Assembly: GCA_964401065.1 (NCBI GenBank)
Contig: CAYNWY010000002.1
Coordinates: forward strand, 1 to 25,993
Direction: 5' to 3'
Origin: Candidatus Woesearchaeota archaeon
Lineage (GTDB): Archaea > Nanobdellota > Nanobdellia > Pacearchaeales > GW2011-AR1
DNA length: 25,993 nucleotides
This document shows, one piece after another, positions 159 through 6,323 of the stretch (within the stretch, counting starts at the first letter, position 1; every line of letters starts with the position of its first letter). Both the position numbers and the translations under genes were made by a program. Below the pieces are notes generated by a model. It saw only the letters and a list, made by a program, of their open reading frames with translations. It had not been told where the DNA came from and did no database searches.

Positions 159-1433
159 TTAAGGTGTTAGTCTAGTTCTATCTCTTGGAAACATTGTTGC
201 TTCCTTGACATTATCCAATCCGCAGATAATTTGAGTTATTCTCTCCAAACCAATTGACCATCCAGAATGAGGGGGTGCACCATATCTAAAACTATCTATG
301 TAAGAAGTAAAATTTTTTGGATTCAATCCCTTATTCTTTAGTCTTTCAATTAATAATTCTGGTATATGGATTCTCTGCCCACCAGAAGAAATTTCAAGTC
401 CTCCGTAAAGTGCATCAAACCCTTCACTTAATTTTGCGTCTTTCTTCTCATCTTTAGTCATAATATAAAAGGGTTTTATAGAAGAAGGCCATGAATAAGT
501 AAAGACTAAATCTCCAGGATAAAGGTTGCAAAGTTCTCTTTCTTGTTCTGGAGTAAAATCCTCTCCGAATTTTCCTTTTACTTTTTTAATTGCTTCTTCA
601 TAACTCAAATAAACTCCCTTAGGAATTTTCAAATTTTTTACTCCAAGACTTTCTAATTCAGTTTTGCATTTTTCTAAAACTTGTTTAATAATAAATTTCA
701 CAACTTCTTCAAGTTCTTTCATTATAGACATCTGATTTGTAAAAGCACATTCAATATCCATCTGCCTAATTTCATTAATATGACGAGTAGTATTGTGCTT
801 TTCAGCTCTCCAAACAGGAGTTATAGTAAAAGTCTTTTCAAGAGAACAAGCCAAAATTTGCTTGTATAGTTGAGGAGATTGTGCCAAATATGCTTTCTGC
901 TCAAAATATTTAACCTCAAATAATTCTGTTCCTCCTTCTGAAGCTGCACCAATTATGCATGGGGGCTGGATTTCAATATATCCTTTATTGTAAAAATATT
1001 CTCTAAAGGCATTTGCAATTACTGTCTGTATTTCAAAAATTGCTTGAATTTTTGGCTTTCTTATGTCCAAAAATCTGTTATCTAATCTTGTTGAAAATTC
1101 AGTTGTAGTTGTTTTTTCATTAACATGAATGGGTAATTTCTCTGCCTTACTTATTATCTCAAGCTTCTCAACATCTACTTCAAGTTCTTTTCTGGCAAAC
1201 TCTGCCTTGACATTAGCAGATTTTGATTTTCCATTTATCTCAACAGCACTCTCAAGAGTCAATTCAGAAAGTTTCTTCATCAATTTCTCACCCTGAACAA
1301 CACATTGAACTATTCCAGATTTATCCCTCAATAACATGAAACCCAATTTAGCAAGAGTTCTTATTTCATATACCCAACCCTTGAGCAAAACCTCTTTGCC
1401 CATTTTTATATCTTCAATCATAGCTCTTTCCAT
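159..1433 (-). CDS. aspS: Aspartyl-tRNA synthetase, archaeal type
   Basis: N-terminal OB fold (GWVYEIR...FMLLRDKSG), class II motifs (YLAQSPQLYKQ, WRAEKHNTTRHINE, GLEISSGGQRIH, APPHSGWSIGLERI) and C-terminal FPRDRTRLTP. Start moved from 1454 to the ATG at 1433 (MERAMI). Confidence 0.95.
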   Translation of the reverse strand: MERAMIEDIKMGKEVLLKGWVYEIRTLAKLGFMLLRDKSGIVQCVVQGEKLMKKLSELTLESAVEINGKSKSANVKAEFARKELEVDVEKLEIISKAEKLPIHVNEKTTTTEFSTRLDNRFLDIRKPKIQAIFEIQTVIANAFREYFYNKGYIEIQPPCIIGAASEGGTELFEVKYFEQKAYLAQSPQLYKQILACSLEKTFTITPVWRAEKHNTTRHINEIRQMDIECAFTNQMSIMKELEEVVKFIIKQVLEKCKTELESLGVKNLKIPKGVYLSYEEAIKKVKGKFGEDFTPEQERELCNLYPGDLVFTYSWPSSIKPFYIMTKDEKKDAKLSEGFDALYGGLEISSGGQRIHIPELLIERLKNKGLNPKNFTSYIDSFRYGAPPHSGWSIGLERITQIICGLDNVKEATMFPRDRTRLTP

Positions 1434-1467
1434 TAAAGTTAAAGAAAAATACAATTTATTAATATTG

Positions 1468-2913
1468 TTATTTCAGCAATTTATCAATTATTTCCATAGC
1501 TTCTTTTCCACTTATTTTGCCTTTCATCTCTGCCATTACCAATCCCATATAAGCATTTGCATTCAATCCAGGTTTGCTCTTTATTAGCTTCAAAATCTTC
1601 TCTTCAATCTCAGAATTATCTGCTTTTTCAACATTAAGTATCTCCTCAAAATTCTCTCCATTAACTAATTTTATCATTATCTCCTTAACTTCTCCCTCTG
1701 TTATCTTTTTCTTTTTAATTTTAATTAAGACATCATCATAATATTCCTGCAAAATATTCTCGACTTCTTCTAATTTTTTTCCTGTCTTAGACGCAATTTC
1801 TTTTGGAAATAAAAGAATCATCTTTGCAATAAAATTAAGATTATTATAAATTTCAGAAAGAATCTTAATTTCATCAACTCTATTTTCACTTAAAACCAAT
1901 TTTATCATTTCCTCAGATAATCCCTGAGATTTTAATTCTCCTGCAACTTCTGTTCTCAATTTAGGCAATTCTTTCTTTATTTCATTAACAAATTCTCTAG
2001 ATATTTTCAGTAAAGGTAAATCAGTTTCAGGGTACATTCTATCTGCTCCCGGCATTGGTCTTAAAAATTCAGAGGTGCCATCAGACAAAGAATTTCTAAC
2101 CTCGGCTTGTGTTGACATTTTCTTATCATATAATTCTTTCTGCCTTAATACTTCGTTTTCAATTGTCTTGACAAATGTTTTCATATCCTGAACTCCTTTC
2201 ATCTCAACTCTATTTCCATTCAAGATAGAGATATTAACATCCTGCCTTATTGTTCCAATTCCTCTCTTAACTTTGCAACTCCTTAAAACATCTCCAATAT
2301 ACAAAGCAACTTCTTTTGCTTGTTCTGCAGATTTTATATCGGGTGCGGTTGCAATTTCAACTAAGGGTATTCCTAATCTATCTAAATTCCAATAAACTTT
2401 ATTTCCCTCTTTTTTAACTTCTCTTGCAGCATCTTCTTCCAAGCAGATTGTATCTATTCCTACTCTTCCAAGAGCAGTTTCAATATATCCATCTCTCGCA
2501 ATTAATACTGTTCTTTGAAACCCAGAAGTATTGCTTCCATTAATAACTGTTTTTCTCATGATTTGGGTTGTTGAAATAATCTTACAATTCAAAAGCAGAG
2601 AGATTTGAAGGACTATTTTCAATGCCTCTTGATTTATCTCATGAGGAGGTTCTTCATCAAGTTCAACTAGACAAGTATTACTTTTATAACCTTGATAAAC
2701 AAATTCTTTTTTTAGATTTGCCTGATATTGTGCTGCTGTGTCCACTTCCCCTGATTCTCCTGCAACTGCATGGAGTTTTCTTTCAACCAAAAAGTCAGGC
2801 TCATCGTTTCTTAATATAGAAGGACAATTGCAAAATAGTTTATGACTATCTAACTGCTGATGAATTTCTAATCCTGATTTAAACTTTAATTCAGTATAAT
2901 TAACATTTAGCAT
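1468..2913 (-). CDS. gatE: Glu-tRNA(Gln) amidotransferase subunit E, short form lacking the insertion domain
   Basis: GLEIHQQL, KLFCNCPS, CLVELDEEPPH, GSNTSGFQRT, LDRLGIPLVEIAT, GIGTIRQDVNISI, RMYPETD. 481 aa versus about 620 aa for typical GatE. Confidence 0.95.
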   Translation of the reverse strand: MLNVNYTELKFKSGLEIHQQLDSHKLFCNCPSILRNDEPDFLVERKLHAVAGESGEVDTAAQYQANLKKEFVYQGYKSNTCLVELDEEPPHEINQEALKIVLQISLLLNCKIISTTQIMRKTVINGSNTSGFQRTVLIARDGYIETALGRVGIDTICLEEDAAREVKKEGNKVYWNLDRLGIPLVEIATAPDIKSAEQAKEVALYIGDVLRSCKVKRGIGTIRQDVNISILNGNRVEMKGVQDMKTFVKTIENEVLRQKELYDKKMSTQAEVRNSLSDGTSEFLRPMPGADRMYPETDLPLLKISREFVNEIKKELPKLRTEVAGELKSQGLSEEMIKLVLSENRVDEIKILSEIYNNLNFIAKMILLFPKEIASKTGKKLEEVENILQEYYDDVLIKIKKKKITEGEVKEIMIKLVNGENFEEILNVEKADNSEIEEKILKLIKSKPGLNANAYMGLVMAEMKGKISGKEAMEIIDKLLK

Positions 2914-2944: not shown

Positions 2945-3211
2945 TTAGCATAAACTTTCCAAGTCTTTTTTAAACTGTAAATTTACCCTTGTATTTTTAA
3001 AATTATTTAACAAAAGCTCTTTTATAGAATTATCAAGATCTCTCTCACTATAAATTGTAATCAGCCTGTGCATAGGCAAAATTTCTTTTAACTTCTTTAT
3101 CAGTCCTTCTGGATTTATTTTCCCCAGAAATTCTCTCTGAGAATCAAAGCAACCATAATCTAAATAGTAATCTTTTGTTAGTACATTATAAGATAAAAAA
3201 TATCTTTTCAT
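2945..3211 (-). CDS. Hypothetical protein (88 aa)
   Basis: ORF starts 1 nt after the stop of the upstream minus-strand ORF and has typical codon usage; no recognisable motif. Confidence 0.6.
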   Translation of the reverse strand: MKRYFLSYNVLTKDYYLDYGCFDSQREFLGKINPEGLIKKLKEILPMHRLITIYSERDLDNSIKELLLNNFKNTRVNLQFKKDLESLC

Positions 3212-4130: not shown

Positions 4131-4619
4131 TTAAAATAATTTCCCCTGTTTCTCGAATTTTTTGAGACCCAATTTATCAGTCAATTTTTTAATAAATTCA
4201 AACTGGGCAGGATTTATTTTTTCTTCCGCTTTTTTAATATCAAAAAATTCCCCTTTATCAACCTCTGGAAACTCAATAATTTCCTCTCCAAAATTCATTT
4301 TAACAAAACTTTTGCAGTTAATTTTTCCCATAAAATCACCCTCAAATGCCCAACAATGAACAATTTTCCCGGATTTTTGTCTTACTTCTCCCAGATAAAT
4401 AGAACCTCCTTCTGAAATATCTGTTTTGATTCCTGTCTCCTCTATAAATTCTTTTTTTGCAACATCAAATAGATTCTTGTTATCCTCTATTTCCCCCTTT
4501 GGAATACTCCATGCCCCTTTGTCTTTACTTTTCCAAAAAGGTCCTCCTGGATGAACCAAAAAAACCAATATTTTCATCCCAAGAATTTTATACATTAAGA
4601 GCCCAGCACTTACTTTCAT
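4131..4619 (-). CDS. NUDIX hydrolase (predicted NTP pyrophosphohydrolase, HPGGP type)
   Basis: SAGLLMY, LVHPGGPFW, WSIPKGE...EFIEETG (slightly degenerate Nudix box), FPEVD. Confidence 0.9.
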   Translation of the reverse strand: MKVSAGLLMYKILGMKILVFLVHPGGPFWKSKDKGAWSIPKGEIEDNKNLFDVAKKEFIEETGIKTDISEGGSIYLGEVRQKSGKIVHCWAFEGDFMGKINCKSFVKMNFGEEIIEFPEVDKGEFFDIKKAEEKINPAQFEFIKKLTDKLGLKKFEKQGKLF

Positions 4620-5048: not shown

Positions 5049-6323
5049 TTATTCTTCTAACCGTTTATTAAATTCACCTGCAATATTCTCAAGCATTTTC
5101 TCTTTAATCTTTTCCTTTGATTTTGCCCATTCACTATGTCCAAGAACCCAACCAAGCTTTACTAAAGCTGTTTCACTTAGCATATCTTCTAAATAAATAA
5201 CTCCTGCCTCAATTAATTTTCTTCCTGTAGAATAAACCAACCCATCAACCCTTCCATTAATGCATTGGGAAGTTCCGCAAAAAATCATTCCTTTTTCTGA
5301 AAGTTCTTTAATTTTTTTAATCCAGTTAGATGAAGTATGCCCCAAGCCACTTAATTCCAAAACAATTCCTTTGTATTTATTCTTGAAATAATAATCTAAA
5401 ATTTCAGGTGACTGCCCTGGATAAAATTTAATTAGAGCGACTTTTTCTTCAAATTTTGTATTAATTCTAATCTTTTTTCCATTGTTTCTTTTGTTAAAAA
5501 CATCAAGTATTTCTATGCCTTTTTCAGGAAAGACTTTTGCAATAGGCTTTCCATTAATAACCTTGAATGCATCTCTCCTGGAACTATGCATTTTTCTAAT
5601 CTTCACGCCCGGCATTGCATAACAAAAATTATCCTCGGAGTTTGCATGCCCAACTAATACAACTTCTGCAATATCGCTCAATCCAGCAACTTCAGCAGCA
5701 CACTGCAAATTTAAATTTGCATCTGAACTGGCCCTGTCAATGCTTCTCTGAGAATATGTAAGGACAACTGGCTTGTTCAATTTCCCAAGCATGAAACTCA
5801 AAGCACTAGAAGTATAATGTAAGAAATCAGTTCCATGAGTAATTACAACTCCCTGTATATTTGAATCATTCAACAATTTCTCACATGTTTTTGCAATCCT
5901 TTGCCAATCTTTAAAATTCATTTCTTCTGAAAATTTCATAAAAGGAGTTTCTATCTTTAAGATATTAACTTTTTCAAACAACTCAGGGTAAAATTTAAAC
6001 AGACTTTCTGGACTATCTAAGGGGTGAACTCCTCCTGTTTTGGGATTATATCGCGAGGCAATTGTCCCGCCAGTTATAATCATAGCTATGTTTGGTTTTA
6101 ATGAATCTTTCTTAATCTCAAATTTACTTTCCTTTTCACTGAATTTTTTCAATATCTCAACCTTCACAATTTCTTTCTTATTAAAACCAACATTATATCC
6201 GTTGCTTAATTTCAATAGAATAATCCCTTTTTCAGATTCAGGACTCTCAAGAAGAACTCCTTCATAGATTAATTTTCCAAAATGAACTTCAACAAAATCT
6301 CCGGGTTTAGCATGAATTTCCAT
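5049..6323 (-). CDS. gatD: Glu-tRNA(Gln) amidotransferase subunit D
   Basis: N-terminal SH3-like domain (LKLSNGYNVG) plus asparaginase domain: TGGTIASR, HGTD, SQRSIDR, KMHSSRRDAF, GLGH, ETALVKLGW. Confidence 0.95.
   Translation of the reverse strand: MEIHAKPGDFVEVHFGKLIYEGVLLESPESEKGIILLKLSNGYNVGFNKKEIVKVEILKKFSEKESKFEIKKDSLKPNIAMIITGGTIASRYNPKTGGVHPLDSPESLFKFYPELFEKVNILKIETPFMKFSEEMNFKDWQRIAKTCEKLLNDSNIQGVVITHGTDFLHYTSSALSFMLGKLNKPVVLTYSQRSIDRASSDANLNLQCAAEVAGLSDIAEVVLVGHANSEDNFCYAMPGVKIRKMHSSRRDAFKVINGKPIAKVFPEKGIEILDVFNKRNNGKKIRINTKFEEKVALIKFYPGQSPEILDYYFKNKYKGIVLELSGLGHTSSNWIKKIKELSEKGMIFCGTSQCINGRVDGLVYSTGRKLIEAGVIYLEDMLSETALVKLGWVLGHSEWAKSKEKIKEKMLENIAGEFNKRLEE

Follow-up and report, generated by a model that had tools for sequence, protein, structure and literature searches.

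A GatE subunit without the AspRS-like insertion domain, a recurrent lineage variant in Nanoarchaeota

An AspRS-like insertion domain is the textbook difference between GatE, a subunit of the archaeal Glu-tRNA(Gln) amidotransferase GatDE, and GatB of the bacterial and archaeal GatCAB. The DNA stretch studied here (the window) comprises positions 1 to 25,993 of contig CAYNWY010000002.1 from a Candidatus Woesearchaeota archaeon. It carries at 1468-2913 a gatE gene that lacks this domain (GAD in Pfam), directly upstream of aspS, the gene for aspartyl-tRNA synthetase (AspRS). The assembly, GCA_964401065.1, is a metagenome-assembled genome (MAG) of 869 kb in 138 contigs that is 82% complete. The locus raises the question of whether the protein is still a GatE, how it came to lack the domain, and what its loss means for the synthesis of Gln-tRNA(Gln). 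In this study, the insertion domain was found to be excised in frame from this GatE, with a short helix-loop-strand connection remaining in its place. The protein is very probably a functional GatE ortholog that works with GatD and has its insertion excised, and it probably forms no tRNA-independent complex with glutamyl-tRNA synthetase (GluRS). The same short form is a common lineage variant in the DPANN phylum Nanoarchaeota (Pace- and Woesearchaeota-type). The literature searched contained no account of a GatE that lacks the insertion, and the variant is apparently undescribed.

The excision is evident from an alignment with the GatE of Methanothermobacter thermautotrophicus (PDB 2D6F_C, 619 aa), in which residues 7-269 of the window protein match residues 4-267 and residues 251-480 match 380-611. 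Between two anchors, Q258 (Q256 in 2D6F) and E271 (E398 in 2D6F), the window protein has 12 residues and 2D6F_C has 141, a difference of 129. The deletion proposed in the original prediction thus stands, with a linker of 12 residues instead of about 11. The N-terminal cradle motifs GLEIHQQL, LEEDAAR, DRLGIPLVEI, GTIRQD and KGVQD are conserved between the window protein and 2D6F_C. In an alignment of 143 relatives, the anchor interval is bimodal: 8-14 residues in 32 sequences and 122-176 in 109, with intermediates of 90 and 97. Chance is of no concern here, because the absence is discrete, domain-sized and in frame, and lies within a strongly conserved gene.

By descent the protein is a GatE, and by architecture it is GatB-like. 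It exceeded the cut-offs of the GatE equivalog hidden Markov models (HMMs), with 500 bits for NF003107 (cut-off 456) and 444 bits for TIGR00134 (cut-off 320); the matches to NF003107 (630 positions) and TIGR00134 each fell into two stretches, with the centre of the model skipped. The best GatB model, NF004012, gave 157 bits against a cut-off of 338, and the Pfam match in the 481-aa protein was to the shared GatB_N domain only. Its best PDB sequence matches were the GatE chains 2D6F_C and 1ZQ1_C, and three trees placed it among GatE sequences of 580-650 aa; the closest long relative was P0121, with 58% identity. True GatB genes in its relatives are separate open reading frames (ORFs) that are 26-32% identical to the window protein. 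Thus, the GAD insertion, the hallmark that divides GatE from GatB, is missing from a protein whose descent is that of GatE. Canonical GatE, as in M. thermautotrophicus (2D6F) and P. abyssi (1ZQ1), has the same cradle motifs and the same helical and tail domains; the GatD partner and the A1-U72 feature of the tRNA-Gln substrate are also common to both. It differs in having the insertion and a length of 619-633 aa, compared with 481 aa here. GatB of GatCAB (3H0L, 3AL0, 2DF4) resembles the window protein in its three domains, similar length and lack of an insertion, but the two are 18-25% identical in fold matches, and GatB is partnered by GatA instead of GatD. The proposal of a minimal, GatB-like GatE agrees well with this combination of GatE descent, GatB-like architecture, a GatD partner and purifying selection.

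The short gatE is under purifying selection and very probably a working gene. Comparison of the window gene with three relatives (78-86% identical) gave a ratio of non-synonymous to synonymous substitution rates (dN/dS) of 0.08-0.13, with dS close to 1. Across 53 close homologs, no variation occurs at the catalytic-motif residues H18, E159, E160, E186, R223, Q224 and D225 or in the RMYPETD block, and the tail motif NANAYMGLVMAEMKGK is conserved among close homologs. H18, E159 and E186 align with H15, E157 and E184 of 2D6F; we take these to be the metal-binding and catalytic His/Glu/Glu of the kinase/transamidase site. The catalytic assignment of these GatE residues reportedly goes back to a structure paper of 2006. 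An AlphaFold2 model of the window protein, built on the homolog alignment, had a mean predicted local distance difference test score (pLDDT) of 85.4 and a predicted template modelling score (pTM) of 0.75. At the junction, the model places a helix at residues 247-263, a loop at 264-270 and a strand at 271-275, and the mean pLDDT of 10-residue blocks is about 90-95 across residues 241-280. Helices run through residues 306-480, the helical and tail region. In Foldseek searches with this model, 1ZQ1_C and 2D6F_C/D came first (E about 1e-32 to 1e-34), followed by GatB chains, and several close homologs of the window protein carry a PF02637 match. The helical and YqeY-like tail domains of GatE measure the D-loop of tRNA-Gln. 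The best explanation of the conserved short protein is that the insertion domain would be dispensable for catalysis.

Table 1. Coordinates in the window of gatE, its parts and the related genes gatD and aspS.
Feature	Position	Strand	Basis
gatE, Glu-tRNA(Gln) amidotransferase subunit E without the AspRS-like (GAD) insertion	1468..2913	(-)	481-aa ORF
GatE residues 1-258, N-terminal part of the cradle (catalytic) domain, last helix ...TIENEVLRQ	2140..2913	(-)	aligns to 2D6F_C 4-256
12-residue linker KELYDKKMSTQA, in place of about 141 residues of canonical GatE	2104..2139	(-)	direct sequence reading
GatE residues 271-481: end of the cradle domain (EVRNSLSDG...RPMPGADRMYPETD), helical domain, YqeY-like tail	1471..2103	(-)	aligns to 2D6F_C 398-611
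gatE-aspS intergenic spacer, 34 nt	1434..1467	(-)	direct sequence reading
gatD, 424 aa, glutaminase partner subunit of GatE	5049..6323	(-)	Pfam GatD_N + Asparaginase + Asparaginase_C
aspS, archaeal-type AspRS, 424 aa from first ATG, predicted discriminating	159..1433	(-)	NF003483 481 bits

The short form is not peculiar to this genome, as had first been supposed. A sample of 401 species-representative genomes from the window's phylum, all of one class, was surveyed, and a GatE model matched in 396 of them. An E-value proxy was used, under which a short GatE yields a pair of distinct HMM matches, the better of them at E = 1e-85 to 1e-140, and a long GatE gives one match at 1e-160 or below. By this proxy, 183 species were short, 205 were long and 8 were unclear; 61 families were short-only, 45 long-only and 8 mixed. 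The proxy was partly validated by a check on 30 genomes with the window protein as query. Seventeen genomes were confirmed as short, with residues 4-480 covered by one unbroken match in frames of 466-517 aa. In 10 of the 11 proxy-long genomes sampled, the match was clearly split, its two parts being separated by about 127-134 codons. Three genomes, deliberately picked as atypical, did not hold genuine short forms: a long GatE is broken across contigs in G367, G107 is fragmented, and G373 is odd. Because such outliers are not genuine short forms, families f11 and f17 are not truly mixed, which leaves six truly mixed families. About 45% is a fair estimate of the share of sampled Nanoarchaeota species with a short GatE. 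MAG labels such as Aenigmatarchaeota, Iainarchaeum and 'Methanosarcinales' among the short forms hint at a wider spread in DPANN, although these labels are unreliable.

A Pfam GAD match was also considered as a proxy for long GatE. It was rejected because many Nanoarchaeota carry GAD in a second ORF apart from GatE, so that only the complete absence of GAD is informative. This second ORF is about 590-605 aa long (GAD matches at, for example, G117:C22:11187-11468 and G001:C5:31882-32154) and resembles an AspRS of the bacterial type, judging from its length and GAD score; the copy in G001 is located about 2.5 kb away from a GatB-like gene.

The domain was shed many times independently in Nanoarchaeota. 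Gene trees were built from alignments stripped of the insertion columns. Two of these, quick trees of 143 and 158 rows, gave 20 and 22 changes between the long and short forms, of which at least 13 and at least 12, respectively, are forced by supported branches. A tree of 42 sequences under the LG+C20 posterior mean site frequency (PMSF) model gave 10 changes, at least 8 of them forced by branches with strong bootstrap and Shimodaira-Hasegawa-like approximate likelihood ratio test (SH-aLRT) support, and a single origin was recovered in none of 200 bootstrap trees under this model. Placing all short forms in one clade was rejected by the approximately unbiased (AU) test (delta lnL 634, p = 5e-12), as was a single short clade within the window's own family (p = 1.6e-4), a group that was named after the tree had been seen. 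Sister pairs of one short and one long form are strongly supported (P0172/P0178 and P0174/P0263, both at 100/100), and within the window's family, two short forms, G085 and G324, group with a long pair from their own genus, G319/P0121. Linkers vary in sequence and in length (7-14 residues), and many share the 12-mer L-x-L-I-x-x-G-K-K-V-x-x. The short products are probably alike because only those deletions are viable that rejoin the pre-insertion helix to the post-insertion strand.

Within the window's own family, the opposite direction of change deserves consideration: the short form may be ancestral there, and the few long forms (G319/P0121, G401 and G415) may have regained the domain by recombination. 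The G319/P0121 pair is nested among the short P0127 and P0142, G324, G085 and the seven-member clade of the window protein. This topology requires one regain, compared with three or four losses, and the linkers of two short subclades share some residues. However, a search for a foreign donor of the insertion in the family's long forms gave no signal, and the G319/P0121 insertion in particular has no close one. G319 and P0121 are 50% identical in the insertion and 67% in the core, as vertical descent predicts; parallel loss is frequent elsewhere in the tree, and the linkers differ in length (12 and 11 residues). Regain is judged unlikely, and parallel loss is the likelier course in this family.

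In the long gatE of G319, nothing convincing was found among direct repeats that could drive a clean deletion. One 32-nt imperfect direct repeat with 72% identity, whose copies are 360 nt apart (L036:4081-4112 and 4441-4472), spans the start of the insertion coding region and the last insertion helix. It was rejected as a driver, as it would leave a 24-residue linker that is not observed, and it is probably a chance feature of AT-rich DNA. Elsewhere in the phylum, the short gatE genes of G261 (family f14) and of G135 and G148 (family f21), at loci L053, L041 and L042, form a tight clade (100/100) with near-identical linkers of 7-9 residues; all remaining f14 members in the sample have the long form. 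The pattern points to a short allele that was acquired laterally, or to a genome assigned to the wrong family.

The possible consequences of the loss follow from the role proposed for the domain. The insertion and the catalytic domain were proposed to form a concave pocket for non-discriminating GluRS (ND-GluRS) and to exclude non-discriminating AspRS (ND-AspRS), a proposal meant to explain both the tRNA-independent binding of ND-GluRS by archaeal GatDE and its indifference to ND-AspRS (PMC2943598). The GluRS:GatDE complex of Methanothermobacter is tRNA-independent, with a dissociation constant (KD) of 40-100 nM, and GatB, which has no insertion, was predicted to need tRNA for its association with GluRS (PMC2943598). 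In the window's organism, the short GatE and GatD would form the archaeal Glu-tRNA(Gln) amidotransferase, with the cradle, helical and tail domains intact. Since the lost domain would be the proposed docking pocket for ND-GluRS, the short GatDE probably does not form the tRNA-independent complex of Methanothermobacter. It may act free or in a tRNA-bridged complex, in analogy to bacterial GatCAB. The glutamine transamidosome of T. maritima (GluRS:tRNA-Gln:GatCAB, 3AL0) is a likely functional analogue, as its B/E subunit has no insertion and its association with GluRS is tRNA-bridged, an analogy drawn from PMC2943598. It differs in using GatA as the glutaminase instead of GatD. Altered transamidosome partners are plausible on these grounds. 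In our estimate, there is an even chance that the domain is a repeatedly shed GluRS-docking module and that lineages without it make Gln-tRNA with no stable transamidosome. Its repeated loss in small-genome DPANN suggests that a stable transamidosome is under weak selection there.

Three points weigh against the overall reading. The GluRS-docking role of the insertion is a structural model and not a demonstrated contact, so the view of the transamidosome built on it rests on a hypothesis. The GluRS gene of this genome is cut by a contig end, so compensating changes in it are not assessable. Finally, in an incomplete assembly, GlnRS or a trans-encoded domain could sit on a missing contig; near-complete and single-contig relatives argue against this last point. 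The short forms are natural deletion mutants with at least 8 independent origins, some of them with short and long orthologs within one genus. Such matched pairs could test the role of the insertion in transamidosome formation, and whether the channelling of Glu-tRNA(Gln) is dispensable in small-genome symbionts.

The gene content of the genome is consistent with a GatDE that carries the full load of Gln-tRNA synthesis. The gatD gene is complete, and its product scored 469 bits on NF003217 (cut-off 310). The GatA model TIGR00132 had no match in the genome (12 of 14 control genomes were positive), and no GatB-like gene was found there besides gatE itself; the supposition that the genome lacks GatCAB thus held up, and AsnRS is present. 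The single GlxRS scored 345 bits on the archaeal GluRS model, below the cut-off of 402 because the gene is cut by the contig end. The tRNA-Gln(CUG) has A1-U72 and A73, and GatDE has been described as reading A1-U72 in tRNA-Gln. GatDE therefore appears to be the sole route to Gln-tRNA(Gln) visible in this genome at its present completeness. In total, 25 tRNAs were detected in the assembly. ARAGORN labels a 93-nt tRNA at c[2157,2249] as tRNA-?(Lys|Gln)(tttg); it resembles a tRNA-Gln(UUG) that contains an intron and has A1-U72.

The position of gatE next to aspS might suggest a new partner. The two genes are indeed co-directional and 34 nt apart, as first noted: gatE ends with TAA at 1468-1470, and aspS has its first ATG at 1433. 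A rewiring of the short GatDE, beyond the loss of its GluRS complex, to dock on the class II AspRS or on another new partner would draw on this family-wide gatE-aspS pair and on the loss of a domain predicted to block AspRS. The same neighbourhood also occurs near the long GatE of G415 and in GatCAB-retaining genomes, which weakens this idea, and we consider it very unlikely. The adjacency is conserved across the family, in AsnRS and GatCAB genera alike; in G415, aspS lies about 1.1 kb downstream, as estimated from match coordinates, and in the nearest relatives a metallophosphoesterase gene stands between gatE and aspS. The arrangement reflects synteny and did not result from the deletion. 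Genera with GatCAB have gatB at a distance of 3-6 kb from the gatE-aspS pair (for example, G348:C1:75972-86331, G424:C12:7380-15653 and G433:C3:31891-42504), and those with AsnRS have asnS 2-3 kb from it; the neighbourhood seems constant whichever Asn-tRNA route is used.

The original prediction also raised the idea that the short GatDE has dual specificity and, GatCAB being absent from the genome, also amidates Asp-tRNA(Asn) to Asn-tRNA(Asn). GatA and GatB are indeed absent, gatE lies just upstream of aspS, and ND-AspRS binding was predicted to be blocked by the domain that is missing here. However, an AsnRS is encoded on contig C36, with scores above both cut-offs (TIGR00457, 431 bits; NF003037, 490 bits). 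This contig starts with tgt(-) followed by asnS(+), and the gene order in close relatives is proS - gatD - DUF1003 - small ORF - gatE - (metallophosphoesterase) - aspS - tgt - asnS. Since the relatives share the order aspS-tgt-asnS, C36 very probably adjoins the left end of the window, which makes its AsnRS a native gene. In 41 genera of the family, AsnRS was found in 10 and true GatB in 28, and the two never occurred together; three family genomes with neither are only 61-71% complete. Thus, every assembly complete enough to tell shows a dedicated Asn route. Short GatE also coexists with GatB in many genomes and is therefore not a replacement for it.

The AspRS and the tRNAs point in the same direction. 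In a comparison of the window AspRS (159-1433) with family loci L140-L163, all 18 GatB-bearing genomes had a short L1 loop with a proline ('QAPGG'), whereas in all 7 AsnRS-bearing genomes, the window included, the loop was four residues longer and Pro-free ('ANVKAEFARKE'). At the W26 position, the GatB-bearing genomes have His (12), Tyr (4) or Ser (2), and the AsnRS-bearing genomes have Tyr or Phe. The closest solved structure to the window AspRS is 3NEL of T. kodakarensis; relative to it, the window enzyme has Tyr at the W26 position and Arg at the K85 position. The rule that sets H26/P85 against W26/K85 in the discrimination of archaeal AspRS is said to be that of Feng et al. in 2003. By this rule, the window AspRS would be of the discriminating kind, so Asp-tRNA(Asn) is not expected. 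In addition, tRNA-Asn has G1-C72, not the A1-U72 that GatDE reads. A dual Glu/Asp-amidotransferase role is therefore not supported by the sequence data, and its probability is slighter still than that of docking on AspRS. Within the family, the type of AspRS L1 loop predicts whether AsnRS or GatCAB is used, which provides a clean case of natural covariation between AspRS discrimination and the Asn-tRNA pathway.

The AsnRS itself looks mosaic. The copy on C36 (L001:1247-2590) is 63% identical overall to that of the closest relative (L056:10932-12245); the first 130 or so residues, the anticodon-binding domain, are near-identical, and the catalytic domain is about 47% identical. This pattern suggests a recombination or domain-swap event.

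The GatB-like length of 481 aa and the Pfam report of GatB_N alone might raise the suspicion that this GatE is in decay or has no function, or that it is a GatB under the wrong label. Such a reading has a negligible probability in view of the dN/dS of about 0.1, the invariant catalytic motifs, the GatE HMMs above their cut-offs with GatB HMMs far under theirs, the presence of GatD without GatA, and the distinct ORFs of true GatB in relatives. For annotation, such 480-aa proteins are true GatE, neither GatB nor fragments.

An assembly or gene-calling error, or a domain encoded as a separate gene, is scarcely credible either, although the fragmented MAG would give room for both. Among the best 120 matches in a collection of 5.8 billion proteins, lengths were 438-531 aa, nearly all of them 473-489 aa. 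These matches came from many independent JGI, ENA, NCBI and Logan assemblies, and more than 100 assemblies show the same in-frame architecture; the named ones were GatE of Pacearchaeota, Nanoarchaeota or 'Diapherotrites' MAGs. The closed genome CP061211.1 (Pacearchaeota Pace33H) also carries a short GatE. Pfam GAD had no match in the window's genome, whereas all 14 control genomes were positive. A lineage-specific HMM built from 118 nanoarchaeal GatE insertion domains was run unfiltered against all six-frame ORFs of at least 40 aa; its best hit in the genome was noise (E = 0.45, 8.8 bits), and the long GatE of the relative G319, used as a positive control, scored 159.7 bits. No GAD match occurred anywhere in 27 of the 28 genomes of the window's family in the phylum sample. 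The proxy classes the single-contig relatives G112, G184, G316 and G370 as short, and none of the four gave a GAD match. The alternative of an assembly gap or a domain encoded elsewhere, which had been named along with the deletion itself, is thus most improbable.

An 88-aa ORF at 2945-3211 (-), which ends 32 nt upstream of gatE and has no family match, was considered as a stand-alone remnant of the insertion. It was rejected, being conserved only in the closest relative and having no similarity to the insertion profile. It is 70% identical to the ORF at the same position in that relative (L056), and in L058 an unrelated 198-aa ORF occupies its place.

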